Shown here piece after piece: positions 1 to 28,415 of a stretch of 64,000 nucleotides of DNA. A model generated the notes under the pieces. The model was not told the DNA's origin, did not search any database, and saw only the letters and a list, made by a program, of their open reading frames with translations. A program made the translations under genes and the position numbers. Source of the stretch: Amphiscolops sp. MND2022 (lineage: Eukaryota); NCBI GenBank assembly GCA_964187785.1, contig OZ076409.1:15874001-15938000 (forward strand), written 5' to 3'. The number at the start of each line of letters is the position of its first letter. The first letter of the stretch is position 1.

Positions 1-3000
1 GGAGACCCAGCCAGGCTGACTCCAGAGCTCGCAAGCTCGCTTCCATTTTGGGAAGCTGGCAATCTCCAGCTCCAAGCAATGTCCTTCCCACTCTGCGCGG
101 GCTTCGGGGCCTTGCACGGAATTGATCTCATCGTGCTGGACGATGGACATATCTCCTGACATCGTCATCTTGGCCTGCGGTCTCCAGACAGCTCTTCTAG
201 GGAACGGAGTCACGCGCCGTTGCAGGTTCCTTTGTCGAGTCTGAGCTGCTCCTTCAATCCAACTCGGAATCTGAGCCAATTCCATATACTGGACCTGCCG
301 ATTGAAGGCTTCAGGGGCGCGACCAACGGGTTTTGCTCTGGGCCATCCCAGTGGCTCCTTCCAGTAGTGATTTGGGAAGGTGATGCACTTGAAGGCGTAC
401 AGGGGATCTATAGGTGGACCAGCACTACTGCTGGTACGAATCACTTTACGTATAAACTCCTGCGTCCAAGGGAATCTAAAGGGGACTCCATTCAGGCTGA
501 GAGGCGCGGAGTACCAATTGACTGGGCCGTACTCTCGTGGCAAAGGGCACGCCTTTCGTGTGCGGGCGCGCAACAAACCCATCAAGTTCTCCTCCAGTTG
601 ATTCTCCGACTTCAAGGTGGTATACCCATGCGGCATCTCGCCACTCAATACAGCCTGTACGATGCGCGGATAGGTCAGTGGGGGGCGTCCTTGGAGATAG
701 GTGCAGAAGGAGACCATGTGCACCTGCACTGCTCTCGACAATGGTTTGGTGGGATACCGGCACACACCGACCGCACCGAAGATTGGGGCCAGGACGGAAG
801 CCATGACGGCCACGAAGTCCTCCACTTCGGCCAGAGTCAAATCGGCGATTTGCTGGGGCATAGGAAATCCCGCCGTTTCCGCAGGGAGTTGACGCTCGGA
901 ATTGTGCAGGGGTTGCGACTGATCCACGCCTACAAACAAGCCGGAGGCGAACACTAGGGTGGAATACAACCAATGTTGGAGGGATGCACGCATGCGTTCC
1001 AGCTGGGTGACATAATCTTGTTGGTCCTTGGAATTCAGGAGGTGACCCCATCGAGTTAGGCTGCGTAGCTGTCCCTGCGCGAGGATCAGGTAGCTGTAAA
1101 AGGTGACTAGATCACTGGATACTACCAGCTCGACTAACATAGCCAGAGGACCAGCCACAAACTTTGTCGGGCCCATGGTTAGCGCGAGCGCTAACATCTC
1201 CGACAGTGGTCTCGCCGATGGTTTCCAACAATTTGTCAGTCTGCACATTGGTGAGCAAGAACTCAGAGGCTATTACATCGATATTCCAGCCTAGTCCGAG
1301 ACTGGTGCAAAAGGCTTCCAAGGGACAGTTAAGCTCTTGAGCTACCTCGGCCAAGGTTCTGTCCACGAATCTGGACTGATACCATTCGGCATACGTTAAT
1401 CCGGCGGCATCTACTTCAGTCTTCAAGTTGGTCGCCTCCACAGCCACGATGTGCCTCAGGCCCACGGGCAACTTGACAGGCTCGATTCCCGCGGCAAACC
1501 GAATCTGAGGAATGGTCCTTTCGACCGTGCGTGCGGCAGGCCATGTTTCAATTTCCTTCACAAGCTCTGCCAGCTCTGTTCGTACGGGAATTTCTTTGTC
1601 TTTCCGCACCAGCCAGTTATATCGTCGAACAGCCTCTCGCTCACTCATGTTAGATTCTCGCGTGACGCGATTCCCGTCCAAGTCGAAGGCCATCCGCCCC
1701 ATGCACATTCCATGATCAAACAGTATGGCATCGTCGATAGTTAGTTGTGCATTTCCCGATCGCTCCACAGTGATTAGCACTCTTGATACAGCAGCAAAGA
1801 AGGCAGGGTATGACAATGCATCGGGGCGTAGGTCTCCGCGATCAACCCGAAGATTTGGCGCACATATGGCAAACTCGATCCAGCGCGCCTTGCACACCTC
1901 AGACAAGATATATACAAACTGCTGCAAGCTTCGTTGCCAATACATGAATCCCGGCGGGGATGTGAAGAGCGCGAGCGCTCCCAGACGACCCCGAAGGATC
2001 CCTGCTGCACGCTCCATTGCATCCGCAACCACGTTTACTAAGGTCGCCACATTCCCAGGTCTACGGGTATCTGCCATGAGGGCATCCAGGTTGTGTAGCA
2101 GTCCTTCACAGGCCATGTGGTCGATCAAGTTGGTGAAGACTACACGTCGCGGGGGTGGCTCTCTTAGAGACCCTCTCAGGTTTGGGTCGTACATGACCGC
2201 GACCATCTCTGCGACTTCGGCGAAGCGGGAGAGTGGCATTGTTAATACCAGCACATCAGGCAGAAGGTTATCGATAGGCAGATCGCTCTTGCACGTCGAA
2301 TCTACCGCCACACAATAGCGCGCACGCTGCAGAGCTGCTTTCAAGGGGGGTTCATTGACCTGATATTACGAGCGTAGCGGGCGTTCGCTTCCCAGGTTTC
2401 TCCTTCGCGCAATATGTACCTAGCGGGAAATTGCTCGGTGAGGTCGTGCTGCAGGCGAGCCATGTAGTTGTTGGGTGTGGCGGGCAGTTGCTCTCGAGCA
2501 CGCTGTTCCCAGGCTTGCTCACTCAGGTCCGCATCACGGGCACGTAGCGATCGAGTTATTTGTGCCGCAATGGTGATTCTGCTCACCTCTCTTTGATCGG
2601 CGTCCGACGGCGGTGCTCTTCTTCTAATCGCACATGTGTTTGGGTGCAAACACTCTGCTGCCATCCAGATGCGTTTACTATCGCTAGTTACCACGGAGCC
2701 GGATACATCATCTGACGGGGGAAGGAAGGCGGGAGGGCTGGTCTCCTCGACTGTCTCGGGCACCTCCAGGGACATGTTGGCAGAGCCTGTGCCCAAGGGC
2801 ACAGGACTCGTTTCAGGATTCGCATCCACACTGCCGTAGCGGTTGTTGGCCTCTTCCATAGACATTTGAGGCGCGCCTACGCCCAGGTGGCCGACGCGGT
2901 ATGGAGGCCTCACGACCACTACACTCTTCATTTGCGATTGCTGGGGTACATCTGCTCGCTTGTCCGGAGGGGGACGACTGGTCGGACTCTCGGTCACAGA

Positions 3001-3858
3001 ATTATTGCGCGTAGCGACGATGCTTTCCTCAGTAAGTCGCTTCCGTCCGGTTTCCTCACGGGGACATGTTATAGCGCTGGTGCTTGGTCCGGTCGTGGTG
3101 TCTGCTTCCATGGACACAGTTTCGGCTAGGGTGGTGGGTGGGGTGACACAGCCCGAGGATTGAGCTGCGGCTTGCAAATAGTGTGCCAATCCGGGAATCC
3201 TTTGTTCAACTGCACGGACGAAGTCAGAGGAGTTGGGGTAGTTGGCGACTGCTTGCAGGGCTACGATCACCGCTTGCTCGCTAGTGCTCCGTCCAGTAAG
3301 ATTCAGATTAGGCACTGATGGCAGTTGGGACCCCGAGGGCTCCCGACTTGAGGCTGATTGTTTGGCAGGGTTTTGCATTGTCGTTGCCTGGGTTCCATAT
3401 GGTGCCCCAAAAGCAAGTGAGCCAGCATACGGTGTCATCTGCACTGGATTCGGTGCCGAGATAGACGGCAGCGATGGGACATTGACGGGCATCATACGCA
3501 GTGATGCTTCTTGTTCGAATCTGGTGCCCTGACTGGGGCCATGCACTGCGATTGATCTTTCGTCTAAGAACTGGTGAGTCAGGTCGTACCCATCCCAGAC
3601 ATTATTGGTACACGTCAAGGTGCGACGATAGCCTGCCACCTCCGTAGTGATCGACAATGATGCGTTTGGCAGCGTTAGCATCGTTTCAAGCTGGGTCAGT
3701 AAGGCAGCTACCCCAGCAACGGCTACTGGTGAAAGACCATCCCGCAGCCTCTCTTCGACGTATTGGGCCTGATTGACCCTCTGCGCTCGCGCAGATTCCT
3801 GGGGCCTTGCACTACTAGGCCCTGTTGCAGGCGCTGAACTGTTTGGGCAATGGGCCAT
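1..3858 (-). pseudogene. Accessory ORF2 of the giant Gypsy (>1280 codons; low-complexity N-half, SGNH-like central domain, hydrophobic C-part), two 1-nt frameshifts
   Basis: ORFs 2341-3858 and 1112-2344 join across a C6 run (2345-2350). A second shift near 1200 leads to a frame I translated (EMLALALTMGPTKFVAGPLAML...) that stays open to base 1. Motifs VAVDS, RRVVFTNLID and DLRP resemble SGNH blocks I, III and V. Confidence 0.7.
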
Positions 3859-3870
3859 TAATGCATAGGT

Positions 3871-4153: not shown

Positions 4154-5360
4154 TTACTCCAGCCCTACATTTAATATTGATACATATACGCGGCTATGCA
4201 AAACCACGCGAATACCAGTTCCTTCGAACATGTTCGTTAGAGCATGGTACAAATTGACCAACGAGAAAGTCGGTCTCTCGGGGTCCAGAATGGGTAAGTG
4301 GACCCGTGTGGATCCTTTGTCTATCAGGCGCTGTATCAAGTGCGTCATGCAGCGCAAGTAGTCATCGGTCAGCAGCGGTGCGCGCTGGCTAGCACGGACT
4401 ATTAACAGGTGAATACTTTGATTAGGGTTGGGGTTCACATCAGGCGGGATAGTGAGAATCTCGCCCACTTTAGGTCGTAAGGCAAATACATCTTCTATGC
4501 CGCACTCCCGCAGCACATATCGCAAGGCGGCAGAGTTGGTCTTTAGGTCAGCAGGGCATGCTAACACTATGTCGCCCTCGGCCTGCAAAAAATCAGATTC
4601 ATCGTAAGAGACATGTTCGGCAGAATTCGGATACAGGGCTCCCGGGTAAACAATCTCTCGTCCGGGACCATTGTCGGAGGGCAGACACACGCGAGGCGTA
4701 CGCCCTTGGACTGCAGCCAGGTCTCGCCACACTGAGCGGGGCATCGCTCGATTGTCGCTGCCGGCCTTTACCCACGTATCTAAAGTTCCCAGAGCGGCTT
4801 TAGGGAACAGGGGGATCTCGAAAGTGTGAGTCCACTCATCTAACAGTCGAATTCTGGGATAGGTGGCGAAACACGTAATAATTAGTTCCAGCCACCATGC
4901 AAACTTCACCTTGCCTCGGTACCAGTCTATGATGTGAAAGCAAAGTATTAAGTCCACAGTGGTGAGGGTCCTCAGACTCTCTAGACAGGATAACAGATTC
5001 AACGGTTCCACCATTGCCTCCACTCGTGGAGCTGTTACCAGCAGCCACCAGTGAGGAGCCGGGCTGTATACCCCTCCTGGTTCCACCTGGACTCCATACT
5101 TATCGCATAACAAGTCGGCAGTGATGCATCGGGCCATTTGCACTGGTTCCCTTTCAAAATTGAATGGTCCAAACGCAATATTGTTGGGCACAGGGGGCAA
5201 CACCGTAGGCAGGGTAAACTCCAGGCCCTTTCCATCGCTAGTCCACTCCTTAAACCTAGGACAAGGGGCCTTCGCTACCCCAGGTAGTGACAACTTCTCC
5301 AGGATAGTGTCTACAGGGTGGTCTCCGGACCGCTCTACAGCTGAGTAGGTTTTCTCGGCC
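4154..5360 (-). CDS. C-terminal pol extension with two tandem TARG1/OARD1(DarG)-like macrodomains
   Basis: Domain 1 (~4838-5182): MARCITAD, LLVTAPR, NLLSCLESLR. Domain 2 (~4193-4615): VSYDESDFL, RPKVGEI, LLIVRA, GSTRVHLP, MFEGTGIRVVLH. Both parallel TARG1 LAHCISED / KSGEV / YLITKK / NLQKSLEAMK / GVTDLSMP / VFEATDIKITVY. The frame stays open upstream to ~5360, where a 1-nt shift joins it to the integrase ORF. Confidence 0.7.
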
Positions 5361-8153
5361 CTTCCGGAGGAACTCCCCGGGCTCCAATGGGAACCCTCCG
5401 GTTCTCATTCACAGCTAATAGGCAGACACAATCTCGCAGCCCGCAGGTTCCACATTTGTAGCGCGGCTGCCGTTTACTCCTTAATTGATACCTAAGAGCA
5501 GTTGCAGACGCCTCTGTTAGCGTCTCTGCAGTTCTAGGAGCTTCCGTTTCGGCCTGGATTGCAGTTTCGGTTTCGACATTTGTCGGTGTTTCTTTTTTCC
5601 TCGTCCTTGCTTTCGCTCGGATCAGCCGTTTCTTCTGTGCCTTGGGTGGTCTTCCCCTCCCCCTTTTGAAAGAAGGAGCGGTCCCCGCTCCTGGCGAAGT
5701 CTCGGGAACTTCAGGCAGATCGGGCTGAGCGTTGCTGACGCTGCTGGCAGACTTGAGAGGAATCGGAGGGGCGGTCGGCCATATGGGATAGTTACTAAGG
5801 AAATTGGTTAGCGAGGGGTTCGTTAACAAGGATGCCGAGGTTCCAGGCAACGATGTTTCTTTTTCGGAAGAGGATATCTGTGGAGACGGTGAGCGCACGC
5901 GCTCATGGTCAGAGAACAGTTGAGGTAGTACACGGGCGGGGGATATCGACTGATCCAACGCAGCCGGAGGAGCCGCAGGCTCCACTAGATCCTCGTCAAC
6001 TGGATTAGGAGGCATCGGCAACATAGCATCGGATAGTTCGTCATCTGTACCTGAGGTGGAATAGTCAAATTGCTGATAATGCGGGCGGGAGCCGCCTGCA
6101 CGAAGTTTCGTGCGTAGTCGAGTGTCCATCCAGTGACGTCGACGTGAGGGCAAAGATGCATCGGACGCCTCTGAAAGTAGTTGTTCAGGCTTATACGACG
6201 ATAAAGATCTATCGTCATCAACTACGTCGACGGAACGTTCAGGTTCGGGGTCCATAAGTACCACCACCTCACCACTGTCCGCGTGTGCAGTAGCAAGTTC
6301 AAGTGGGCCACTGTGGTGCGGTTTAAGACGCTCAAAATGAACCTTTTGACCTGTGTCTAGTACATAGACACGACCGTCCTGAAAGACTTGTACAACCTTG
6401 TGCGGGCCTCGCCAAGCACGCATCAATTTCGGGGAACCTTTTTGCGGCACGTAGCGGCAGAAAACCCAGACGAGCTCGCCCACTTGGTAAGCTCGCGCTT
6501 GTATAGCACGGTCGTACTTCAACTTTTGACGCAATTGGGCTTGGTGCGTATTACGCCGTACCAAGTCATGTATTTCTTGCTGGCGAGCCAACACATGATC
6601 GACATACGCGTCATGCGACTCGAATGAATTGGCTGCAAATTCGGGATACAAAAACGTGAGAGGAATGGCCTTCTCTACACCCCGGGTCAGCATGTAGGGT
6701 GAGAAGCCAGTGGTGGCGTGCCTCGTGGAGTTGTAAGCGCCCATGACCTCATCAAGACATTGGTCCCAGTCGCGCATACGGCGGGAGCAAAAAATTCGCA
6801 GTAGGGTTAATAATATCCGGTTTTGACGCTCCACCAAGCCTTGGGTTCTTGGATGGCCAGCCGTAGAAGTCACTTTGGTAACGTGGGCTGCTCTTAGGAA
6901 TTCATTGGATACCTCAGCAGTCAAATTTGGAGCATTGTCAGACTGCATTCGAGTAGGTGTGCCATGACGGGCGAACCACTTTTGCAGCAGCAACCGAGAG
7001 AGGTGGTCACAGCGTCGTAGTCGTGATGACTACAGGGAACTGCTTCCGCGAACTTGGAGAAATGGTCAATTATGACCAAGATGCCAGTGTTGTTACTGTC
7101 TGAGGGGCAGATCTTCAGGTGATCGTATTGGACTAATTCGTTGAAGTACCCACTCTGGATGTTCTTTAGGTGGAATCGGACGTCACCAGGCTTATCTCGA
7201 ACCTGTTGACAGGTGAGGCATTGGCCAACGTAACGGCCCACGCTGCGTCGAATACCAGGCCATGTGTGACGTTCTTGAATCCGAGCCACCACTTTGGAGA
7301 TGCCTTGATGTCCCATGGCGTCATGCGCACGGAATAAAATCTCATGCTGGTACAGTTGAGGCATGACGATCATGCACGGGCGTTCGTGCAGGGGACGTTG
7401 GTTGGGAGAGTATCGTACGCAAAGCACACCATTTTTGTTAATAAACAGGAGAGTTTTCTTCTGACGGTAGTAGTTGCGTGCGAACTCACGCACGTTCTCG
7501 GGAAACACGTCATGATCAATGGGTTCGTTTAGCACTAACTTTTTGAGTGCTAGCACATGAACATCACGGTTTTGGGCTAGGATCAAGTCTTTGATACCAT
7601 GCACGGTGTGAGCATGTTCGTGAAGTTCAGTGTCGATGTCTTTAAGAGCCATAATTGAGTCGCGTACACCCGAGGGAGTACCTTGCAACGCAACAGGATT
7701 CGCCCCGGCAACAGCATAGACGGTACGTGAAGGTACATTTACGGCATGCGTCGGCAATAGATAATCTTCGCGAGCTTCATCAGTGACATCAATCCAGTCC
7801 TCAGGGTAGTCTGGATAAGCATCCTCGTGCGGTTGCGGTGCAAGGGAAGGCGGAGGCGGCAAGGGTGCTGCGAATGCTTTCGCTTGTCTGTCCCTCCTGC
7901 TCGCTCGTTTGGTGCGGCGAAGCACGCGTAGCAATTGGTTGGGAGCCCTAGGCTCCAAGTTCTGCAGGTGCGCAGGTAGTTCGGGATGATTCGGGATGAC
8001 TCGACCCTGAAGGTCGAACCATGGGGCAACAGGTAGTTTATCAAATTCGTCAGCTGAAAGGAAATTCCAGCGTTCGCCCGCGGCTGGCTGCTGTGCAAGC
8101 TGTTTCTCTCGGCACCGGTACTCGTTAGTTCGTTTGCTCAAGCCATCGGCGTT
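5335..8153 (-). pseudogene. Integrase (HHCC, DDE core, GPY/F) with long C-terminal tail; frameshift near 6995
   Basis: HDAMGH...CLTC; YDHL, IIDHFSK, SDNAPN, GLVERQN; WRGPHKV, VHFERLK; an extra CT dinucleotide near 6995 splits ORFs 6921-8141 and 5335-6993. Confidence 0.95.
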
Positions 8154-10920
8154 TCAATGTTGAGTTCTTGGGCGATGTTCCACGCGAAAGTGATACTTCT
8201 CCAGGGTCATAATCCATCGGCCGATTAGCGCTTGATCCGTGGAGTACGTCTTCAACCAGGACAAGGCTTGGTTGTCCACCCGCAGGGTGAATTTCCGGGG
8301 ACATAAATAGCTGTGGTTTTTCACTATAAAATAGTAGGCGGCGAACATTTCGAGTTTGGGAGCTCCGTACTTAGCTTGTGTGGTAGTGAGCTTCTTGCTG
8401 CCGTAAACTATTGGCCTCAGGCGTCGTTCACCCGGAGGACCTTGCCACTGGTGCAGGATACCAGAAATGGCGACAGCGCTAGCGTCAGTGTCCAACACAA
8501 ACTCTCCCTCGGAATCAGGCTGCGCGAGCGCAGTCGCCTCGATCAGGGCTTTCTTGATTTCATTGAATGCGGTTTGTTGTTCAGGACCCCATGCGAAGGT
8601 GTCATTCAGTCCAGTGACGGCATGCAGGGGTGCAACCAGCTTAGCGTGCCAAGGGATGAATTCGCGATAGTAATTGGCGAATCCGAGGAAGCTCTGCATC
8701 TCCGTCTTGTTACGGGGAATTTCCCAATCGCGCAACTTGACGAAGGCTTTCGGGTCGGGCTTCACTCCTTCTGCGGAAACTACTCGTCCCAAGTACTTGA
8801 TCTCCGATTTCATGAAATCGCATTTGGCCACGCGCATTTTGAAACCGGCTTCACGGAGGCACTCAAAGACTTCACGTAGGCGTGCCATATGGTCCTCCAC
8901 AGTCTCTGTGGCAATCACGATATCATCAATGTAGGCCATGACCATGCTGCCCTCACGGTTGACAATATTCCGTAGCGCACGCGCTATTGATCGCTGGAAT
9001 GTGGCAGATGCATTGCACATACCAAATGGCATTCGCCGCCACTCAAAAAGCCCTAGTTCACAAGCAAAAGCGGTTTTGTGGCGATCCGCCTTTCGCACAG
9101 GAATTTGCCAAAAGGCCCAGGCAAGGTCTATGCTGGTATAAATCTTCGCCTTGCCCAGCCGTGCCAGGCTTTCATCAATACGGGGCAAGGGGTAGGCATC
9201 CTTAATGGTTACCTCGTTTAACGGGCGGAAGTCGCAGCAAAAGCGCAACTCCCCGTTTTTCTTTTTCACCATTACAATGCCGCTCGCCCAAGGGGACAGC
9301 GAGGGCTGTATCATTCCCAGAGCTAAGAGGTTCCGCACCTCCTGATTGGCACGTTCGGCCTTCTCAGGGGACATCCGGCGAGCACCTTCGCGATGTGGTA
9401 CAGCCCCTGGTTCCACCTCTACGGTATGCTTTGCGATAGTGCACCGACCGATGTCAGCCTTGTGCTTCATGAATAGCTCATCGAATTCATCGAGGAGATT
9501 TTTGAGAGACTCGCAGGCACTAGCGCCCCATAAATCCTTAACCGCCTGCAACTGAGATTCTGGCCCAGGAATCGGAGCCATTAGCTCTGGGTCTGTACGC
9601 TTGCGAATTTCGCGCTCCGATAGTCCTGCCTCGCTAGGGTCAGTTGAGGACAAAAACTCAAACTCTGAAGAAGAGGTTAACTCAGAAGCAGTGGACAGAT
9701 TCACTTCACTATAAATTTTATGAACAAAATTTGCACGACTGTCGTCGGCGTTAGTCTTTGTGCGGGTTGTCGTGGGAGGGTCCAGACACTGAGGTACTGC
9801 TTGGTATACTACCGTTACGGGTACTACGGTGCCCAGTTGTACACCACACCGCATGCGTTGAGGGTTGCTGGTGAGATTTATCAGGCTCACAAAGAGTGTC
9901 CCTGTCTCACTGACAGTGGCCACGCTGTCCTCTAAAAAGACGACATTATGCAACGTAGTGTCAGACAAAGAGGCATTGAGCGCTACGCTTTGAAAAATCA
10001 GCGGCTCTAGTGCATTGGTGACGAGCTTAGCTCTAGCCACCGCACGCTCGAAAGGTTGCAGAACCAAGTCACTATCCAAAACGACTGGGGTAGCTATCGA
10101 AGTGTCACCTACCTGTGCGTGAGCATGATGCCACACAGGCTTCACTGGTGCTCGCACCACAATCTTCATAGATGTTAGATCCACTAACACCTGGTAGGAG
10201 CGGAGAAAGTTCCGACCAAGTAGGAAGTCTTCCACACCCATTGCGTCATCTACCACCACAAAGTTCGTTTCAAGCTCATATCCTCCCAGCTGGAAATGGA
10301 TATGTTCTGCGAGGCCGTAGGTCTTTATCGTCTTCCCGTTGGCTGCGTACAGGTCAACTTGGTAGGGTTTAAGGACCGTTCCAGTTCGAGCTGACACTCT
10401 GTTAAAGGCGGAAAACGTCAGTATGGAGACGCCCGAGCCAGTGTCCACCAATCCTCGCAGCGGGATAGGTGCTGCATGAGGCACCACGAAGGAGACCACG
10501 AGCGACGCACGCTCATCTATACGCGCTTCACCAGTAGGTTCCTGATGATTGATGTTATAGCATTTGAGCTCCTGGGGACCCAGACAAATGCCAGGGGGAA
10601 ACACATCCACCACCACACAGGCTTCAAACTTCAAATCCACTCCATCCATTGAAGCACAGACTGGCACTGGGGAGTATGTCGTCAGAGTCGTAGACTCTCC
10701 CGGAGCGTACCATTCTTTCGGTCGAGGCAACTCGTTTCGTTTGTAGAGGACAGACAGTTCGACCCACAGCTACGCCAGGGTTAGCGTCGGTCTACGCGTT
10801 TGCTCAGCTGCCAGCAACAGGTGAATTGAAATCAGCGTCCGTCCTTGCGGGTCGAACGTCGTAGGCTCCAAGCAGGTCTGAACTTGCTTAGCACCACAAG
10901 TGAATGTCATCGGAGTGTGG
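8154..10920 (-). pseudogene. pol: Pol: protease-like repeat, aspartic protease, reverse transcriptase and RNase H
   Basis: LVDTGSG (Asp codon 10443-10445), LLGRNFL; RT PWASG, RFCCDFRPLN, YPLPRID, MPFG, YIDD (8922-8933); RNase H TDAS, DNQAL; in-frame stops TAG 10770 and TGA 8154 (H*NADGLS). Confidence 0.96.
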
Positions 10921-11195
10921 AACGCAGGCGGTTCCGCCGGATGCAGCATCAACACACGGTCATCTTCCAAAGGTACGGTGTGCGCGGCGATGCCAGCTGA
11001 TTCTACCTCAGCCCATCGGTTGTAGGCTAACTCGTCACTGGGCTTCGGCGCGTGGGAGTGCTCACCACATTGCACTTCCGCCTGATCAAAAAGTCCACAG
11101 CTCGTGCACTGATAGATCCCCGGATGACATTCAAGAATGCCATCAGTCGCGTCTTCCGTGGTGACATTTACGCCCTCTGGTTCGGAGGCAGTCAC

Positions 11196-13540
11196 TGGTT
11201 TTCGGGCTTGGTCGCGGTTGGGGCATTCGCGAGCAAAATGTCCGTTTTGCCCACAGTGAAAACAAGCACCTGCCGGCGCTCGGGCGGGAGCTAGGACAGC
11301 GGGAGCTGGGGCATTTGGGGGGGGGGCGCCGGAGGTGGCAAGACGCCCTGCGGCATGACCATCTTATTCGGCGGCAGTGGTACGAAGGGATGAGGTCTAG
11401 ACCTCATAGCTAGTCTGGGATCATAGGTTTGTTGAGGTTGGGTGGGTCTGGGACGATTTCGTTGCAGCTGACGCGTGGTGAATCGCAAGGACTCTACGGT
11501 AGGGGGTTCGGTAAGAAAAGTCTCCGAGGCGTATACTATGGCAAGTTCACGCCTCAATACTGGATCTCGCACACCTTCCATGAAGCGCTGCAAGATTTCA
11601 TAGCGCTTGGTAATGATACTTTCTTGCGGGAATCCTTGGCTCCTGAGACCCTCTAAAGCGTCTAAGTACTGCATCCAGTCCTCTTTTTCTTGTTGGACGC
11701 GGCTTTGGAAAGTCTGCCGCACCTGCATACGATTTCCTCCCGCGCCAAATCGGCTAGATAGCAATTCGAATACCTTCTCGGGGGTGTCACGTTCAGACTG
11801 AGCCTTGTTGATGATGTAGTTGCGAGCCTCACCCTCGAGATGACCAATAATGCTCCAGGCCCGATCTTCGGCCGAGACTTTGGTTTGGACTCTTTTCAAG
11901 TATCGCTGCATCACCAAGATCCAGCCATCAATAGACCCGTCCTTAGAGCCGCGATACACACTGGGTTTGGTTTGAGCCAGGTCACGTCCCGCAAGCAATG
12001 GTGCTAGTTCTTTGGACATCGCTTTGGAAATGGCGGCAGTGAATCTCAGCTGCTCGGGAGAGATGACCTCAGCCTCTCCTTCCTTGGGTGCCACTTCGTC
12101 GGTACCGTCGTCACTGCCATGTGTGGCTCGTACTGAGAGGTCCGCTATGTCTTCTTTCTAGCGAGTGCTACTCGCACAAGGAGCGCCCGAGGGCATTCCG
12201 TCCTCGGCTGTCCAGTCGGCGGTCAGATACAGGGAGTCCGTTCCAGAAGCCATGGTAGGGGCCGTCGCATACGCAGCTCCATCAGTCTGGGACCCTAGTG
12301 TGGCCTTGGTACAGGATAAATCAACTTCAGTAGAAGAATCTAGATAGATAGGTGACATTGGGTCCACACCTTGGTCTCGGGTGGTACTTCGAACTACGGA
12401 GGAGGTTATTTGACTCATCGAAGAGGAGTCGTGGGGCCCTCTCACCTGCACCCGTGCAGGTTTACGCTCCACATCAGCCATGATGAGTACGGGGTCCCTG
12501 ATTCGGGTTTCAGGCGCCGTCGACTTGGAAGTGCCAGGCTTCAATGCACTCGCCAGCTCGGGTTTCGTTGCCCGACCCAGGTGCGACGATTCCGGAATCT
12601 TAGTTGAATCCGCGACTGGTACACCTTCACCGGCACCAGATTGTCGTGGGAGGGACCTCTCGCGCCTCATGATGTTGATAGCGTTGAGCACAGTGTGCAT
12701 TTGGTTACTGAAATCATTGATCTGGGTTTCCACACGAAGTTCACGGGCCATTAAAAGGTCATTCATCTCACCCATTCTGTGGCCTAGTGCATCCACGCGA
12801 GCGCTCTGCGTATTCTGCGCGGTTCGCAGTTGATCACTGACCTGCAATCCTTCTCGCATCGTTGTCTGCAACGTTCTCAAATTTTCTGCGATGGCACGAT
12901 GTTGATCATTGCACCCAGCACGAGTGCTGGCCAGTTCAGCTAAGGCACGTTGGGTCTCAGCTTGGGCGTCCAATATTGCGGCTTTATACACCGAAGATCG
13001 TTGGGATGACGCCACTGAACCTGCCACGCTCCTCGTACGAGGCGCCTCAAACTGATGTTCACCTACATTCATCATGGGTGGTCGCACTCTCTTGTGTTTG
13101 CCATAGGCACAAACTCGAGTGCTACCTCGAGTGACTCCAGACCCCTGCGGTCTCGCATAACTCGTGTTCCCCGTGTAGGTAAGATCTTCGTCCACCATGA
13201 TCTGTAGGCGGGAGCTCGTCTTCTCTCCCAGGGGTGCGCGAGAGCACCCTTCCTCAGCTGCAGGTTCGTTGGTCATGTTTGAGTTGGGCCACTCCTCTTC
13301 TGCTTCATTGGTTCTTTCACGGCAGGTTTCATCGACCCATTGCTCGGTTCGACGAGAGCTTCCAGATGCAACGGAACCCTCAGAGGGAGGGACCATGGCG
13401 GCCAACTCCTCTTTGCGTTGTTGCTCGATAGTGACTTCGTCAGACATTTCGTCTGAAAAATGCGAACTGTCCATTGTGGATCCCATAGTCACCCATGACC
13501 GCGAACTCATGTCAAGCCTTTCCAGGCCTGGTAGGACCAT
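11196..13540 (-). pseudogene. gag: Gag (long N-terminal region with predicted coiled coil, capsid-like domain, CCHC zinc knuckle)
   Basis: ORFs 12158-13774 and 11291-12094 share a frame across one TAG; capsid-like HLEGEARNY...FQSRVQQEKE; after a shift in the G10 run at 11317-11326 comes CFHCGQNGHFAREC (~11222-11264). Confidence 0.88.
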
Positions 13541-14760
13541 TACGTACGATACCAATAGCAGAGCAAGTGTCAACAACTCGGGCGCCGCCTTTAATGAGAT
13601 CTCGAAGGACGCGGGATTTGTCGAGTCGCTGTTAGCTCTAGGCTCGTCTCGGTGTGGACTTAAGAAAATTACTGCTTCACAATGTCCCAAATTTCTCGAA
13701 ATGCGTTTTAAGGCTCGTAGGCTGCTCAAATTCGCACAGCGCTTTCCCACCAGCACACTGGGCCAGAAAATCAACCTGGTTTGGGGCCAAAAGTCTCCAG
13801 TCGTTTACAGGAAGAATTTCAAAGAATTTTTGGGTTTTCCGAAAATCGCGCAGCAACACTCAAGAGGCTCGTGTGTGCACTGGAAACGCCGTATCAAGCT
13901 CTAAATTGACCAGCGGATCTTAGGTACACGTAGGTTTGCGACAGTGAACACAGTTTTGAGCTGCGCCCCTTCTACACAATTTCACCTAGGTACAGACGTG
14001 CGGTACCACTATGTACCCAAATACGCTGTTTTTCACGTCTTTTTCAAGATTGCGGTACACTGGAAAAAGCTAGTAAGCTCAAATTTTCTGCAGCAACGCA
14101 GGAACTAGCACAGGTTACAATGGTGGGCTGCAGTATAACCCCACCCGCCAGCTAAGGTGCCCGGGTTACTCGGAAAAATTAAGAAAAAACTGCCTTTTTG
14201 CACACCTTTTTGGGTGCCACGTTTTTCCTATTTTCTCAACAAGTATCACACAGATCGGCACTAAACTTAGTAGTTTATGCCAGTGGGCACCTACAATGCC
14301 ACTGATATGGTCGAATTGAAGCGCAAGCGCTTATTTGAGGTTTCGACCCGGTCTGGACGTTACACACGAAAAAATACTGTTTTTGACTACTTTTTTCACA
14401 AATTGACCAAGAGGATCACCTCAGAAAGTGATACGGCGGGCAAAATGGGACCAACGTGTTGCCCCACTATCCGTAGCACTGGGATAAACCCTCAATTGGT
14501 TATGCCCGTTAGATATAAGGCACTGACAGTCCTGCAGTTTTGGATTTTTTTGGTCCTTTTACGCTTCTCTGAGGTCGAAACGTCAGAGAGCTTTTCTCGA
14601 CTTTGGTGAACGACACGCCCACCAAATTTTCGGCACTAACGTTAATTTTTGTGGTGGTTACGAAAATGCAACCACTCTTTGGCTAGGGTTCAGGAATCGA
14701 TGACCCGACCCTAACTCAGAGACAGTCCGATTTTGTGGAAAATTGATCAAATTCAGTGCG

Positions 14761-15032: not shown

Positions 15033-16211
15033 GTTCAGACTCGCTCTGTTCCACTAAGCTTCGCTCTCAAGACTTTCAGACAATGCACTTTCTATGCCTG
15101 AAAACGCCTCAAATTACAGGTTTTTTGCACCGTGTCAGCCCCAGGCTGCCTGAATCCGCTGCAAAAGTTGCAGTTAGTGTCCTGCGGGATTGCTACGCTT
15201 GAAAAAACACCGTACACTGCTTTTTCACACTTCTACACAAGTGTACGCCTGTGTTTTTGGGTGCCTTTTTGGTCAAAATTCCATTTTTTTTTGCAATTTT
15301 CTGGTGCTAAATCGGCACTTTTATCACAACCAAAGGCAAAACTGCTGCCTTCTGTGCCTCGCACCAGCTTTCTCGAGCCTTGCAGCTGCTTTTTGCAACA
15401 CTTTTCACAAAGTTTTCCTGGTTCCGCTGAGCACAAGTGCTCAAAACCACGAAAAACACCAAAAAAAGGCAAAATTAGGGTTTTCTCACGCAAGTGCTAT
15501 CTTTTTTGCAGAAAAGCACTTCGTAGGGTGTCGTTACATCTACAACAAAACATTACTGACCTGCACCAACGATTCCCCGTCGAAAAAGGTGCATTTTCAA
15601 AATTTTCACCGACCATGAGCCATTTGAGCGACGCGTCCGGTCACAGGGGGTGCATCTTCACCACGCTTTTTCTCCACATCCAGACCAGATAGAGACACGC
15701 GGTTTGGACCATTAGCATCGTCTGCAATTGCACTTGCTGTCCACCAAAAATCATACCTCTAGGACGTCTCCACGAGAAATGGGAGTAGAAAGTAGGCAAC
15801 ACACAATTTGACTTCCCCTTCGCCTCGCTGGTTCACGGTCAGCCATCTACCAGTTACCTTCTTGCATGGCATAAAATGGCTGAAAATAGCTTGCAAAACC
15901 TGTTAAACACCCGTAGCCACGTGCTACGGTCTTCTGCACCTGCAAAAAGATACCCGCTGATGGGCACACAACACATCACACAAAAATACCGATTTCCTTC
16001 CAAAACACCTAAAAATGCCATTTTCGCACCTGAAAATGTGATTTTTTCGGGTTTTCTCTGGTTCAACGCCTCTCCCAGTTCCAGTAGAATGTCGCACGAC
16101 TAAAAAAAGGTAAAACTCTGCTTCTCTCTCCTTTTCCAGAGTCGAAACGGGCTTGGCGCTGATCACCAGGCCAGATCTTTTAAAAACCGCTCGGGAAAGC
16201 TTCCCAAGACG

Positions 16212-16229
16212 ATCCCTCTGTGGTCGCCA
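16212..16229 (-). other. Primer-binding site, tRNA-Arg-like
   Basis: Minus strand TGGCGACCACAGAGGGA, near-complementary to the ...TCCCTTCGTGGTCGCCA 3' end of metazoan tRNA-Arg(TCG) as I recall it. Confidence 0.75.
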
Positions 16230-16244
16230 AAAAATGAGTTTCTA

Positions 16245-16957
16245 TGTAACGATAAGCGCTGGCGCTTGAACCGCAACGTAGAGTGGAGGAACTAGAACAG
16301 CGAATATAATCTGGGACTTAGATCTCCGCGGCCCTAGCTCATTTTCCCTCCGAAGGAGCCAGTCCCAAGGTGGGGGAACCGTCTTGTTGGAAACTCTCTG
16401 GCCTGGTCCTAGTCTGTAACTGCTAAAAGTAACGGGCATCTTGCATGTCTCAAGACCACTGCTCAATTAGCCTTTAAAAAGGGGGCTGAAAACAGGAGAA
16501 TGTTGAGCCATAGTATTGGAGAATCTGATAAAATCGACATCAAAATGGGTAACTATAGATGTTAAATGGGCAGCTCTCGAGCATATCAATCTACTACAAT
16601 AAAGAAAGCACAACAAGCATAATAATATCAGAAGTTTGAGTTATTTGACAGGAATCGACCATGGCTTCCCAGCGCTAGCGCTCGTCACCGCACAGGACAC
16701 CGCAGGATCTTCAGGCGAGCATCCGGAACACATCCGGAACTACCAATGTAGTGTTAATTCCGAAGATGGGCACATCACCGTGTTCTAGAGACTGATTTCT
16801 ACGTCTTTTTTGTCGTCTCCTTTCGCGGGGGGGGGCGATTTCTGCTTTTCTGATATGCTTTTCTGACAGGTCTTTCGTCTTGAGCATGTTTGAGTGCCAC
16901 GTCAGATTTGAACGAATTTTTGCTTCGAAAATTTTGACATGGGCAGTTGCCGTTACA
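16245..16957 (-). repeat. 5' LTR of the giant Gypsy (713 bp)
   Basis: Terminal inverted repeat TGTAACG...CGTTACA; adjacent PBS; homologous LTR at 27704-28415. Confidence 0.85.
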
Positions 16958-17871
16958 CTTTTTTGAACCTCAGCCTCCTCTTCAAAATTGGGATATAGCG
17001 CAATATTTCTGGATGTCCTCTTTTGTGAAATGCAAAAGCACGAAAAAAAAATGCTGGCTGAAGTAGAGACTCGAATTTGCGACTAGGTTGGTTAGTCCTA
17101 GTCCACTAAACAGATTAACTCTAATCCAAATGTAGTACATACAGGAAGAGATCTGTGGTCTGACGAAAAAATGGCGAAAAAACGAGCCATTGTGAAAGTA
17201 AGCTTCCATTTCAAATTCTTAAATTTCATTGACTGAGTAAACTCTCTAGCCTTTTTTTGAGATGCAGGACAATGTATAATCCTTTTCCAATACAATACGG
17301 TATGAATAGCTGTTAAAATCAAGAAGGGAAAATTTGCGTCTCGTGAGGAAATTTTGTGACATCATCTTTAGATCCTTTTTTCTGAAACAACATCAGAAAC
17401 TGTCTTCGAAAGTGACTGCTGGCCAGCACATAGGAGAAGAAGTTCCAGGAGTTGTTGCAGCATGACAAAACACCCTGGAAAATGAACATATAGAACACAT
17501 GATACAAATACACTGCGGTTATTTTTTGGTAAGGATTTACGTTTTAACTTTAGTTTAACGATACTGAATTGCCTGCAAAAAGTATACTTTTCGTCGACGC
17601 TTTTTGGAATACGAATTGCCCGATTCATACAGTCGCAAGCTTTTTGTCAGAGCAAAGAACTTACACTGAATATTCCATTTTTACAGACTTCAGGGGTAAA
17701 TTCTACAGCGGTACCCAAAGAAGCAAAAAACCTACTGTTAACTTTGATTTTTTCTCAGTTTTCCATACATCCCCTTAGGGTCCCCCTTCAAGTTGTTTGA
17801 CACAGTACGACTTTTTCGGGAACAAATGACTTGACACAGTGTAACGAGCAAAAGACGTTACGGGTAATTAG

Positions 17872-18690
17872 AACAAACGGGGAACGGCCCAAGTTAGCAC
17901 CCGCTCAAGGTTCAAAAATGTTAAGTTTTTTAAATATACAAAAGGACACTATTGTTAAAATTTCATTAAACTTTCAGTACCGAAACATCCCTGAAAGGAT
18001 GTGCATAAGACTCGAAAACTGGTTTTTCCCCAACTTGAGACAAACAAAATCCATCTTGCCCAGCCGAAAACCTCTCAAAAACAAAAAATGGAAGAAAAAC
18101 TGTTCGGAATTTTTCAGAAATGTCTCCTGTAAGTCGCACAGTGCCGAAAACCTTGAAAAATCCTCGATGCTCGCAAAATTTTTAGTTTCTAGGAAAAATT
18201 GAAAGAGGCTTAGATAAAGAACAAATTGGAAAAAACGTCGCATAGTACCGGAAAAACGCCGGGCTCAAAAAATTTGGATAGTATCGAAAAAATTATTGGT
18301 GAATTTGTTTTGAGGAAACTTAATATTAGAAGAAAAATTAGAACTTTGTGCCGTCTCATAGTGCCAAAAAATCCGAAACATCCTATTTTTAAACATCCAT
18401 TCGGTTGCAAAATTTCAAAAAATTAAGAGGGGACACTTTGGACACTTCAAAAAATCCCGAAAAAAGTCTCACAAAGCCGAAAAAGGAGGAAAGACCCATA
18501 GGGCCGAAAGAAGTGGAAATGTTAACCTTTCTGCTTTAGAATGACTTTGTATATAACGTTAGAGAGTTTGAATGCGTTCAAAGTCAAATACTGAGCACAT
18601 TTGGTAATAGTGTACAGTGCAGAAAAAGTGGACCATTCCGACTAACAAAAAAACTAGTCACTGTTATAGTCGGGCTTTTTTCCAAACTTC
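17872..18690 (-). mobile_element. HINE/DINE-1-like repeat copy (truncated) in a GPCR A intron
   Basis: Begins AACAAACGGGGAACGGCCCAAGTTAGCACC..., ends GTCACTGTTATAGTCGGGC, matching the other copies. Confidence 0.65.
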
Positions 18691-20408
18691 CAAATTTGAA
18701 TACTATCGAAACTTACAGCAAAAACATTCAGCAATTTGTTGAATTGATATTGGCGATGGGTGACAATTTTAACACCGGCTGATGTGATGAGAACACTGCC
18801 TATTCCCAAGTTCATGACCAAGAAACATACTGAGACAAGAACTAAAGAAATTGTAATCTCTCGCTCCTTGCGGCTCACTTTTCCTTCCATTCTTCTCAGC
18901 TTGTACACTATCAAAATATTCGATGTTAGGATGCTCAGAAACGGAGCCCCGATTAGCCCTACCAACACGATCCATGTCACGTAGGCATGTCTCTGTTTCT
19001 CAGTCAGAATATCATCTCCTATCATGGAACACTCATCTTCATGGATATCGTAGATTGCGAGAACAGGAGAACAGGTATGCACACGAAAGCACTGACGCAT
19101 TCCACGAGAATGGTTGTTCCTACTGCAATGCTGGATTTGCCGTACATTTTGTAGTTGACAGGTACCCAAAGAGCCAACACGCGATCAATTGTCAGAAATG
19201 CGAGTATGTAGTTAGCTGCAAAATACATATTGATTTCATAATGACACGGTACAGGCTTCATGGTGGATAATAGGTTTTGAAACTATACAGCAAGGCAAGG
19301 AGTATGTGGACAATCGAAAAACAAATTTGCGAAATTACGTTTCAGGTCGACATTTAGCTTCATGAAGAAAATATTAATACATTCAAGTGTTTGTTGACAG
19401 CATTAACTTATATGATTCAACCGTAAAAAGAGTTTATGGCTGTTGTGTACTGATAATGAAATCACCGTTTCCTAGTCGTTCCCTAGTTGTTTCTTAATTT
19501 AACGTTTTTCGTAGTAATTCGAGCCGAAAGAAGCAATGCATGCCACGTAGCCTAGAGGTTAGGTTGGGTGGTTTAGTAGTAGTAGTACGCGTGTTCATAT
19601 CCTGCGAGGACTAAGAAGATCACATTTTCCTAAATTGGAATTTTTCACTTAGGATCAAATTAAGGATTTTTTGTTTCTTGAAACACACAGAAAAAGGGTA
19701 AACAATTCAAGTGCGAAAATTGGAAATAGTTCGTTTCAACATAAAGATTTCATGTTTACTTTTTCACAAATAGACTGTTTCAATAATAAATACCGGAAAA
19801 CACGGAAAAACTTTGTATTCTCAAACATATTCTGACACGAACTAAAATTTTTCATTTATTTCCAAATGCTTGAGAGGATAGTCTCTACAGTTGCTTTGAC
19901 ACTTCGAGTAAAAATTGGCTCTGGTGATTGCAAACGTTTAATTTTTCTCTCTTCCTTGTATTTTTTAAACATTTTTTCAGGAAAGGAAACTTTTAGTTTC
20001 AGCCAAAAGCCAAAGTTTATGCCGGTTTCTCTGCGTGGTGACTGGAAGCAGATGTTCGTGGGTTTGCGCTGGACCAAAAAGAAGATCAAAGGGTCCACAC
20101 ATTGTGTTTTTGCACTGTGCAACTTTTTTTTCGCAAATTTGTCACATTGACAAATTTTTTGCCTATTTGATTTTTGTATGTTATTAGTAATCAAAAAGCA
20201 TCTTGCGGAAACGTAATGTCACTCTTTTGGATTTTTGGGTACTCTGTGACTTTTATCGTAGGGCTTTTCAACCCAAAAGGGTTTTTTTGATGTTCTCAAC
20301 TTAAGACATCCGTTTTTCGAGTCACAAAGTTACTTCTTATAACATCTGACACAAAAAAAATATTACAGTGCCTGTTTGTTTATTCAAAACTGGCTATTTT
20401 AATTTCAT

Positions 20409-21536
20409 AACGTTTTGTCTTTGAGCACTGTGGATAAATACGCCAAAGAAAAGCTTCGGCATTTGTATGGAACTTGCATAAAAAAGAGAGAAATTTAAAA
20501 ATGAAACCTATGTGTAACATTTTTGTCAGTTTCATACTGGGCACTTTTCTCAAGGAAATCAAGATGTTTCCAATTTTGCATAAAATATTATTTTTTCTTT
20601 TCCGGTATTATGATCATGGACGCAAAATAAGAACAAAAAATGACTATTTTGAAGCCAGGTCTCAACAAAGCACTTAAAGTTAGTGTTTTTTTCGCATATA
20701 ATAATTTTCAGAGACTGGATTGATCAGCCAGAAAGAAGACAGCTAAATTGGCAATTGAACTGGTTCAGTGACACCATCTTTTTCTGGATGCATTTGAGGG
20801 AAAAGTCTCAGGAAACAAAAGTACCAGACAGTTTGATTAAAATACCCTGTGCATCAACGAGCAACTTCAATCCAAACTTTTGAACCCGCTTTTCGTACAT
20901 AAAGTCAGCCGTGATAGTTTTCTAAACTTTCTATTACTGAAAACATTAAAACATGCTATAATGCATCAGGAGCACTGTACTTCTTATTTGCATCTAATAT
21001 AGATTCATTTTTTTTAACAAAAATTGTCGTTTTGTTTTTAAATTTTTTGTCCGCAGAAAACATCATATTCCAGGCTCAGTTTTTAAATTCAATCAACTGT
21101 TCAAAAAATGTGTTCGACATAAACATTTCCAACAACTGTAATGGATAGAAGTTGAATTTTAACAACTTCTCGATGACTTCTTGTTCTTTCCTTGATGTTG
21201 ACAATTCAACTTTGTCAAGGGTAAGGTTACGGGCCCCATGTACATATTGACTTACCTCCAAAAGAAGTCGCACTTGTGAAATAGAAATGTATTTTGCACG
21301 TGTAGCGGTTGAGAGTGATCAGTGGGAATTGGAAAAGAGCTGAGCCAGAAGCAATGAGACCATCCAAGAAGACAGACGCCGAGTCAGCCAAGGCTAGACA
21401 CTTGATGAACATAGTACCTGAAGTCCTATTCCCCAGGCGAGAAGCTGTGAGATACGCGAAGCAGTTGCCAGTTAGACCAATGATTGCTACCACCAGACTG
21501 AGACACCATCCAATGTAGATGCCGATCTCCAGATCT
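20409..21536. repeat. ~1.13-kb near-identical duplicate of 53389-54516 (GPCR exon plus intron)
   Basis: Direct comparison shows only scattered differences; the ORF track gives identical translations for 21076-21273/54056-54253 and 21309-21518/54289-54498. Confidence 0.95.
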
Positions 21537-22342
21537 AGGGTGAATACCTCAGCAAATTCGGTAACATTGCTGGAATCTGGACCAAAAATCAAACACTAAT
21601 TGCACGAAACTTTTCGATATAATCAATTGTGCAGCAGATATTAATTTTCAAATTTCACCACCGTTCCTTACTTATCAACTTTGCAATCGAGGAAACTCCA
21701 ACTTTTTAGATTTTTAAGGCAATTAGCTTGAGGTTCGTTTGGCTTGAGGTTCGTTGCATGACTACCCTGAAATGAGTTTTTGACATGTGTCCATGAGTCC
21801 ATGACATCCATACTTTCAATGCTTCCATGCATGGTATTGTTTTCTTCCATAAATGAACTCATACTATGAACATACCTGAACACAACCTATCAATAAAAGC
21901 TATGATAACGGTGTTTATATTGAAAACCGTCAATTCTTCGCGTGGGTACTCCAGTAACTTTAAGAGGGAACTTTAAAGCATGATTTTTTCAAATTGAAAA
22001 TTATGTTTCTTAAATTACCTTCGTGCAAACCTTTTTAAATTACCTTTTTCTCAACATGACGCTGACGATCGCTTGCAACTATCTCGGTTTTGAATGAAAT
22101 TCTGAGTTTCGGTTGCTTGAAGGTACTTTTGTTTCAAATAAGAAACCATTCAAATGTGTGCTATCTTGAGATTCCGCAAAACGAAGTTAAAATTTCAATA
22201 GATCAAAATTTCACACTATAATGGAAACCTGTATGCAAATAAAGTTGTTAAACTGGAGGAAATATTGATATTTTTCATAACGTTTGAAAGAATTGAAAAG
22301 TATTTTCAATGTTTCTAGTTTGTGAAAAAAAAATCTTTTCTT

Positions 22343-22800
22343 ATACGAACCAGCAGGTAAAACAACCCCCTTCATTTGAATTAGTTTTGACTGAATGAAT
22401 GAGCTTCAATTGACGATGCTTTTTTCAACCATGAAAAAATAGAGGACAATTTGTTCACCAATTAGTTGAAAATTCGACTTGAGCTTTATATTTGTCAATT
22501 GAGTTTTCTTTACCAAGAAATGACGTTTTTTGTTAGATAATTTGCCCCACTTGGCGCTGTCAACTACTCATGTTCTGCGAAAAGATGCCTTCCAAAACAA
22601 AGAGAGGGGGGGTTCCTTATGTTCCTCTTGTAAGAGAATGAAAATTGACAAAAATCTTCATTTTATTCAATTGTTTCGTATTCAAACATTCAATACGACG
22701 AACTGAATTTATCACTGAAGAGTCTTGTTGTTTTTGTTATACAAAATACGTCCCTTTCTCGGGCGGTGTCCCAAATCAGAACGTGCGTTAGAACGATGAG
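22343..22800. repeat. Diverged non-coding block homologous to ~37131-37550, upstream of GPCR A and B
   Basis: Shared ATACGAACCAGCAG, TTCATTTGAATTAGTT, AAAATTGACA-AAATCTTC, TTCGTATTCAAACA, CGGGCGGTGTCC. Confidence 0.75.
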
Positions 22801-27469: not shown

Positions 27470-28415
27470 AAATGCCAGTATCACACCTGAAAAAGGGCTT
27501 TTTCCGGGTTCCTCTGCGTCCATTTCATTCCAACTCCCAAGAATACATGCTGTCGTTAAAAAAGAAGCAAAACTCCGTCTCTTCTTTCTTCCGCAGAGTC
27601 AAAACTGTCTTGGCGCTGGACACCGGTGGGCTAGATCTTTTAAAAACCATGCAGGAAAGCTTCCGAAGACGATCCTTCTGTGGTCGCCAAAAATGAGTTT
27701 CCATGTAACTGCAAGCGGTAAGCGATTGTGGCGTGACAATAGAATGGAGGAACTGGTACCATGGATACGGTCCGGGGCAAACCACCATGACACCAGCTCA
27801 TTTTAGCCTCCTAAGGGTTGGCAGTCCCGAGGAGGGCGAACAGTCTTAATGGATTCTCTCTGGCCTGATACCAGTCTGCAACTGCTAAGAATCACGGGAA
27901 TTGCATTGGGACTTGCAACCAAGATAGCTCATAAAAACTGCTTGTTTGTTGACAACTGAATTTCCTCCAGTGGGAATTTCTTCATAGGTCAATGCAAAGA
28001 ATGATAAAGTAACAATAGCTCTCGAGCATATTTCAATCTAAATACAAAATACAACACACAAATTAAGATAATTGAGTCCAGTTTGGCAAAAACTGTAGAA
28101 GTTGTGCCGATTTGGCACCAGCGCTCAAGCTGGGCACAACCCCGAGCACGGGCTGACTCTTTAAACTGTCATCGGAACTGTGGGTTCGGCACTTTACAAT
28201 ACAGGATTCCGCGGGCCAACACCGTGGTGTTTGCAAGTTTTTAGCTCGTTTCTGCCTTCTGTTCTCCCGGTCGTCTCGCTCTCTCTCGCGGGCGCCTTTT
28301 TTGACTTTTTTCTACGCTTTCTGACAGGTACATCGTCAAAAACATGCTCACGTCAGATTTGAACGAAACTTTCAAAAATTGTCAAAATTTCGTCTCATTA
28401 CAGGATGCCGTTACA
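27470..28415 (-). mobile_element. Truncated sibling of the giant Gypsy: 712-bp LTR (27704-28415), PBS and start of leader
   Basis: TGTAAC...GTTACA; PBS TGGCGACCACAGAAGGA; blocks shared with 16020-16957 (CTCTCTGGCCTG, AGCTCTCGAGCATAT, CACGTCAGATTTGAACGAA, AGATCTTTTAAAAACC); left limit uncertain. Confidence 0.85.

Follow-up and report, generated by a model that had tools for sequence, protein, structure and literature searches.

A tandem pair of predicted TARG1-type macrodomains with remodelled ADP-ribose pockets at the end of Pol in a gypsy-like retrotransposon

We find that a ~19-kb gypsy-like LTR retrotransposon of Amphiscolops sp. has one gag-pol frame, which ends, behind the integrase, in two tandem domains that are predicted to adopt TARG1-type macrodomain folds, closest to those of human TARG1, DarG and Poa1p. 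Both domains likely neither bind nor cleave ADP-ribose, because the residues of the ADP-ribose pocket are replaced. Codon comparison of one pair of copies nevertheless places both under purifying selection and excludes free decay. The reading we prefer, and to which we give an even chance, is that these pseudo-macrodomains, blind to ADP-ribose, would serve the integrase tail as a module for binding nucleic acid or protein.

The features of the element are collected in Table 1, with coordinates in the window (the whole 64,000-nucleotide stretch of DNA that was analysed). Comparing the window copy with three other copies, we obtain an element of ~18.9 kb with LTRs of ~715 bp, an internal part of ~17.5 kb, a gag-pol frame of ~3,190 codons and a second frame of ~1,430 codons. 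Pfam matches in the window copy follow the gypsy order of gag, protease, reverse transcriptase (RT), RNase H and integrase. This particular copy is broken: stops lie at 12158-12160, 10770-10772 and 8154-8156, and the frame changes near 11291-11363, near 6921-7029 (in the integrase core) and within 5335-5404. Its 5' and 3' LTRs are 98.0% identical, the latter lying ~1.2-1.9 kb before the window start. Across the genome, at least 105 scored places match the region at 96-100% identity, a figure that sets a floor and does not count the copies; 12 of these 105 have an open frame of at least 3,000 codons, in two cases with a stop within the matching stretch. The identity of the LTR pairs has a median of 99.65% in 34 copies and is 100% in 5, which marks the family as young and recently active. 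Its youth and abundance allow existing assemblies to be used for mapping insertion sites against chromatin. In two sister families, ~45% (43-47%) identical to this one in the two domains, the pair likewise closes one single frame, of 3,220 and 3,116 codons.

Table 1. Features of the element in the window
Feature	Position in window	Strand	Remarks
Retrotransposon setting	GC-rich block, 1 to ~14,000	-	1.07-Gb genome
5' LTR	16245..16957	-	TG..CA, ~713 bp
15-nt spacer, then PBS-like site	16212..16244	-	spacer 16230-16244
Gag region	10770..13804	-	in pieces in window copy; PNMA-like capsid match, CX2CX4HX4C knuckle (PF00098)
Aspartyl protease	10200..10463	-	Pfam
Reverse transcriptase	8787..9269	-	Pfam
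RNase H	8193..8591	-	Pfam
Integrase	6300..7361	-	Pfam; zinc-binding domain, core, C-terminal domain with WRGPH motif
AT-hook-like RGRP motif, integrase tail	5629..5667	-	PF02178, E 0.22, below cut-off
Cys4 motif YxCGxCGxxxCxC, integrase tail	5422..5460	-	conserved
Frame change between integrase tail and the two domains	5335..5404	-	window copy
Domain 1	4835..5191	-	predicted TARG1-type macro fold without GxGIA loop and next helix
Inter-domain linker	4622..4834	-	~70 residues, two low-confidence predicted helices
Domain 2	4178..4621	-	predicted full-length TARG1-type macro fold
Stop codon closing gag-pol frame	4154..4156	-	
Second ORF	1..3870	-	three frames in window copy, runs out of window; ~1,430 residues in other copies (L035:5425-9714)

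The second ORF, which we examined as a possible env after pol, has one hydrophobic stretch near residue 1020; it has no Pfam or PDB match and a weak match in a sister family. Two other frames in this part of the element are each open in 4/4 copies examined, one of 211 codons overlapping the second ORF on the same strand (window 476-1111) and one of at least 200 codons in antisense (window 1716-2318). At the other end of the element, the 5' LTR is separated from the PBS-like site by 15 nt in 36 of 38 copies, and by 16 nt in both sister-family copies. Since this spacer is usually about 0-3 nt, end processing or priming may be unusual here. The LTR 3' end and PBS region also has a diverged (80-89%) second copy in the window (16169-16439 and 27629-27901), probably a relic of a related element, and an AT-rich dispersed repeat family, whose members reach 99% identity, occurs two to three times, at 17362-22715, 32966-37472 and 49205-54529.

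A sequence-only reading of this DNA had proposed two tandem TARG1/DarG-like macrodomains fused to the end of integrase. The in-frame fusion holds in other copies: integrase tail and domains share one frame in 28/30 loci, or 28 of the 29 copies other than the window copy (the exceptions being the window copy and L004), as well as in both sister families. As to the end of integrase itself, the pair does stand behind integrase in frame with Pol, but it begins ~330-400 residues beyond the integrase C-terminal domain, after a low-complexity tail in which two islands are conserved. One is an AT-hook-like RGRP motif, present in 19 of the 20 family matches with enough upstream sequence. The other is a Cys4 motif, a putative metal-binding site, carried by 34 of 265 family matches, many of which end before reaching it.

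All of the motifs on which that reading drew are present in the minus-strand frame 4154-5404, with ARCITAD, LLVTAPR and FATYPRIRLL in domain 1 and LLIVRA and FEGTGIRVVL in domain 2. This frame, which contains both domains, has no Pfam match and no single-sequence PDB match, and Pfam gives no macro match in the region or in 40 family members. Searched against the PDB, the family profile has TARG1 as its sole match (E 0.38-0.48), and the domain-2 profile has TARG1 on top (E 0.021-0.029, ungapped over 79-80 residues); the domain-1 profile did not find TARG1 among PDB sequences. Aligned by hhalign with a profile of intact retroelement TARG1-like domains, domain 2 scores a probability of 93 and domain 1 one of 76, and these rise to 97 and 83 when 125 rows are added. 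Both scores lie above those of all 25 reversed, 25 column-shuffled and 25 block-shuffled alignments, and the inter-domain linker gives no macro match and nothing above its shuffles.

Structure prediction points the same way for each domain. The AlphaFold2 model of the whole region has a mean pLDDT of 61 with two confident cores, and Foldseek ranks TARG1 first (E 9e-9, TM(target) 0.76-0.80, rmsd ~2.3 over ~145 columns), a match that would correspond to domain 2. Modelled alone, domain 1 reaches a pLDDT of 84, and its top eight Foldseek matches are all TARG1 (E 1e-5). The top ranks for domain 1 in VIA-align are TARG1, Bt_1257, DarG and Poa1p, TARG1 (Z 12.2, rmsd 3.0, 117 aligned) being tied with Bt_1257. 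The proposal of two tandem TARG1/DarG-like macrodomains is thus borne out by the AlphaFold2 models, through Foldseek and VIA-align, together with profile matches above the shuffles.

To describe the pocket we use TARG1 numbering, which we counted from the chain alignment and which fits the residues given in PMC5928194 and PMC9411070. The TARG1 dyad is Lys84/Asp125, the DarG equivalent being Lys80, and a loop glycine is also described (PMC9411070). The mutant TARG1-G123E loses ADP-ribose binding, catalysis and damage recruitment, and its RNA binding remains (PMC5928194). Our counts are over the family matches listed (the best 120 of 165 and the best 150 of 374) that span 60% or more of a domain, after thinning at 85% identity. 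Among these rows are many pieces of decayed copies, and residues were equated through alignments of 11-20% identity.

Among the matches listed, the Lys84 position of domain 1 is Ala or Ser in 59/61 (Ala in the window, 5030-5032), the Gly121 position Asp in 53/59, the Gly123 position Tyr in 48/58 (Tyr or Phe in 54/58), the Leu124 position Arg in 48/58 and the Asp125 position Gly in 52/58. The diphosphate loop of the window copy here reads D-W-Y-R-G, from 4927, and the GxGIA loop (Gly43-Ile44) is deleted with the helix that follows it, leaving a 16-column gap. The corresponding residues of domain 2, again among the matches listed, are Arg at Lys84 in 52/57 (Lys in 1/57; window 4394-4396), Ala at Gly43 in 52/55, Asp at Gly121 in 43/46, Glu at Gly123 in 36/45 (window 4277-4279), Arg at Leu124 in 38/44 and Pro at Asp125 in 33/44; the loop reads D-P-E-R-P in the window copy, and Asp265 aligns with TARG1 Asp37. 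Intact relatives among the matches listed keep Gly43 in 119/125, Lys84 in 121/125, Gly123 in 116/124 and Asp125 in 120/124. The earlier remarks that the catalytic Lys is A or R, and that the GAGIA and GCGLD loops are missing or altered in both domains, therefore describe the family as well as the window copy: GxGIA is gone from domain 1 and has Ala in domain 2, and GCGLD has become D-x-x-R-(G/P).

The same replacements weaken the function that had been suggested, an ADP-ribose reader or decoy. Here the remodelled pocket would bind ADP-ribose or poly(ADP-ribose) on chromatin or host proteins, with avidity coming from two domains, and we regard this as possible but rather unlikely. TARG1 is, after all, the best structural match for both predicted domains, and tandem macrodomains of PARP14 have been solved with ADP-ribose (PDB entry titles). 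In domain 2, moreover, an Asp at the Asp20 position (44/49 among the matches listed) and the near-invariant Arg could hold phosphates. However, the pocket glycines that TARG1 requires are replaced family-wide, with Glu or Tyr at Gly123 and Ala at Gly43, and domain 1 has no GxGIA loop at all. Substitution of Gly123 by Glu is precisely what abolishes binding and damage recruitment in TARG1 (PMC5928194), and the equivalent G128E impairs SCO6735 (PMC9411070). The Asp20 position is itself Asp in only 18/122 intact relatives among the matches listed, so its retention in domain 2 says little.

Would the rebuilt pocket still catalyse? An active hydrolase of new chemistry or substrate, in which Arg316 and the D-x-x-R loop would form a site for ADP-ribosylated nucleic acid or a related phospho-ligand, seems to us improbable. 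The conservation of domain 2 among the matches listed, with Arg at the Lys84 position (52/57), the loop Asp (43/46) and the loop Arg (38/44), does resemble that of an active site, and in the ALC1-like class the catalytic Lys can be exchanged: SCO6735, with Gln85, hydrolyses without Lys84/Asp125 (PMC9411070). But SCO6735 keeps and needs its loop glycine (PMC9411070), at the place where the element family has Glu, and a salt bridge between the loop Asp and Arg could close the pocket. By analogy, SCO6735 also speaks against reading the domains as non-binding (PMC9411070), and the near-invariant Arg at the Lys84 position could, with the loop Arg, line a pocket that is remodelled and still occupied, which would count against the module.

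The module that we prefer would have come about in a few steps. An ancestor of the element would have acquired a TARG1-like eraser, a capture also made by other gypsy lineages, the loop GCGLD would have changed to D-x-x-R-(G/P), and the domain would probably have been duplicated. The resulting pair, with the AT-hook and the Cys4 motif ahead of it, would anchor the integrase or the replication complex on a host protein or on DNA or RNA; our model for this tethering is the SARS-unique domain, whose tandem macrodomains are blind to ADP-ribose. Both domains are acidic in the window family (pI 5.3 and 5.8), which argues against simple electrostatic RNA binding.

It could also be that the pair has no role in integration and that the element's protease releases it from integrase, leaving a free accessory protein that binds, for example, a host silencing or immune factor. 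LTR elements generally process Pol with their own protease, and the tail that separates integrase from the pair is long, of low complexity and just 36% identical between families. We hold this to be a doubtful account all the same: no cleavage site was identified, and the conserved AT-hook and Cys4 motif within that tail fit a DNA-directed module.

Selection was assessed between the copies L073 and L075, a single pair treated with a simple counting method, and dN/dS is 0.07 in domain 1, 0.12 in domain 2, 0.02 in RT and 0.17 in the tail. Across families, where dS is saturated, identity is 43-47% in the domains, 48-50% in gag and 26% in the linker. Loss of the catalytic and pocket residues, and the degenerate second and third copies in other gypsy Pol proteins (P0279, P0302), might suggest a neutral, decaying relic of a captured macrodomain, but open frames, these low dN/dS values, a conservation near that of gag and replacements that are invariant family-wide make such a relic very hard to credit. 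The values of dS are uneven along L073 and L075, at 0.15-0.22 in RNase H and integrase and thus far below the 0.6-1.7 of gag, protease and RT, which suggests recombination between the two subfamilies. The pair itself probably arose by duplication. The derived loop D-x-x-R-(G/P), common to both domains, is the sole sign of this, since the profile scores give no preference (78 for domain 1 against domain 2, 76-83 for domain 1 against intact domains).

How unusual is such a pair? The sequence-only reading had cautioned that single macro domains may already occur in retroelement Pol, and they turn out to be common. A Pfam Macro search shows an intact TARG1-like domain, matching TARG1 at E 5e-25, in no fewer than four further gypsy-type families of this genome (L044-L060, L077-L080). 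L077 and L078 have it at the Pol end behind integrase, L080 has it between RNase H and integrase, and L079 between protease and RT. In a comparison of seven elements of the Amphiscolops sp. genome, the RT-RNase H of these families is just 24-34% identical to that of the element, which makes them distant lineages; recent descent from the C-terminal single-macro families L077 and L078, at 24-25%, is rejected. Domain databases, too, annotate Poa1p-like macro domains in insect gypsy Pol. Among the 120 longer protein matches listed, retroelement Pfam domains are found in 49 (hand count) and more than one macro domain in 3, two of which are gypsy Pol proteins with intact and decayed copies between RNase H and integrase (three copies in P0279, two in P0302). 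We note in passing that P0278 has three TARG1-like domains in 484 residues and no retroelement Pfam domain, that L077 has a weak dUTPase match, and that L041-L043, strong Pfam Macro matches in short frames, are probably exons of host MacroD/PARP-type genes.

Macro capture, the C-terminal site and tandem copies are therefore each seen elsewhere, and none is new alone. Of the claim that a tandem C-terminal pair is unusual, what stands is the combination: a Pol-end pair with both pockets remodelled is absent among the matches listed and from the literature searched. That search, with most subscription papers and Repbase Reports outside it, found nothing on TARG1-like domains in gypsy elements. 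The presence of TARG1-like domains at three Pol positions within one genome hints that ADP-ribosylation acts on retrotransposons. Two copies kept under selection after loss of the pocket amount to a natural G123E, and can reveal the role of the TARG1 fold when ADP-ribose plays no part.

The integration sites of the element hold a second departure from expectation. At the ends of the window copy we find a 3-bp target duplication (window 16957; the other end in L031). We sampled 40 copies (L081-L160), of which 36 had both ends found (two copies share one duplicated site): the LTR termini are TG..CA in 36/36 and the 3-bp duplication is present in 32/36, against a chance rate of 56/1,260 = 4.4% when ends are paired across copies. 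Matches of other lengths are rare among the 36, with one of 4 bp (a T run), none of 5 bp and one of 6 bp, and the 3-bp duplication recurs in 4/4 further copies and in 2/2 sister-family copies (L161/L074, L162/L076). Site preference is weak, with A at -3 in 26/32, A or T in the middle in 31/32 and T at +3 in 18/32. Beyond this local A/T preference the 39 flanks share no target; their mean GC is 0.36, a value typical of the genome and like the host part of the window, and two flank pairs are alike, one being a near-identical duplicate (L099/L101). No tRNA gene was found in 40 downstream stretches.

LTR retrotransposons are described as making target duplications of 4-6 bp, with Troyka and its 3 bp as the exception (PMC12440569). 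The element has the gag-PR-RT-RH-IN order, the TG..CA LTRs and the CX2CX4HX4C knuckle of gypsy elements, and it does not make the 4-6-bp duplication expected of Ty3/gypsy (PMC12440569). A 3-bp duplication with TG..CA ends thus runs counter to the published rule that takes 3 bp as the mark of Troyka (PMC12440569), and annotation tools that expect 4-6 bp would overlook such elements. We found no literature on this combination in a search that had most subscription papers and Repbase Reports outside it, and the supplements of PMC12440569 could hold exceptions. The 3-bp stagger and the macro pair only co-occur in this lineage; nothing links them.

Among known systems, the closest in predicted fold and motif order, for both domains, is human TARG1 (OARD1/C6orf130; 4J5Q/4J5R/4J5S, 2L8R) with its ALC1-like class, which we compared through DarG (5M3E/5M3I), Poa1p (6LFQ), Bt_1257 and SCO6735. 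Unlike these, the element has Lys84, Asp125, Gly123 and the GxGIA loop replaced or missing, and it carries two copies, at 13-19% identity, in a retroelement polyprotein. Gypsy Pol proteins with an intact TARG1-like domain share the placement inside Pol, in L077 and L078 also C-terminal behind integrase, and P0279 and P0302 share tandem copies with decayed members. They differ in that Lys84, Gly123 and Asp125 are kept in at least one copy and that their tandems sit between RNase H and integrase. Fish epsilon-like endogenous retroviruses also carry macro domains (Basta et al. 2009, per the review PMC4977317), and are alike in that a retroelement bears the domain, but they belong to the Retroviridae and their macro domains are described as additional reading frames (PMC4977317).

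As a functional analogue, with no homology claimed, the SARS-unique domain offers tandem macrodomains in a viral polyprotein, SUD-N and SUD-M, that fail to bind ADP-ribose and instead bind nucleic acid in the form of G-quadruplexes (PMC2674928). Its folds are of another macro class (domain 1 aligns with them at Z of 8.0 or less, against 12.2 for TARG1, in VIA-align), and it comes from an RNA virus and binds through a lysine-rich surface (PMC2674928). Troyka elements share the 3-bp target duplication, yet they have CG..CG ends, LTRs of 100-400 bp, an internal part of 1.6-7.7 kb, a CX2CX8-10HX4C knuckle and no GPY/F motif (PMC12440569), where the element has TG..CA ends, ~715-bp LTRs, ~17.5 kb of internal sequence, a CX2CX4HX4C knuckle and a WRGPH motif; on these differences we reject membership in Troyka.

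Chromoviruses, finally, have a chromodomain at the Pol C-terminus (PMC12440569; title of Gao et al. 2008), and resemble the element in that an extra folded domain ends Pol behind integrase. The element has no Pfam match to a chromodomain, and its C-terminal folds are the predicted macro folds. A bolder proposal, which we put forward tentatively and think unlikely as a whole, is that the pair would be the macrodomain counterpart of the chromovirus chromodomain, within a purpose-built integrase tail of AT-hook, Cys4 motif and two ADP-ribose-blind macrodomains that would capture target DNA or chromatin, in an undescribed giant LTR lineage whose 3-bp stagger and TG..CA ends would represent a second origin of 3-bp duplications outside Troyka.
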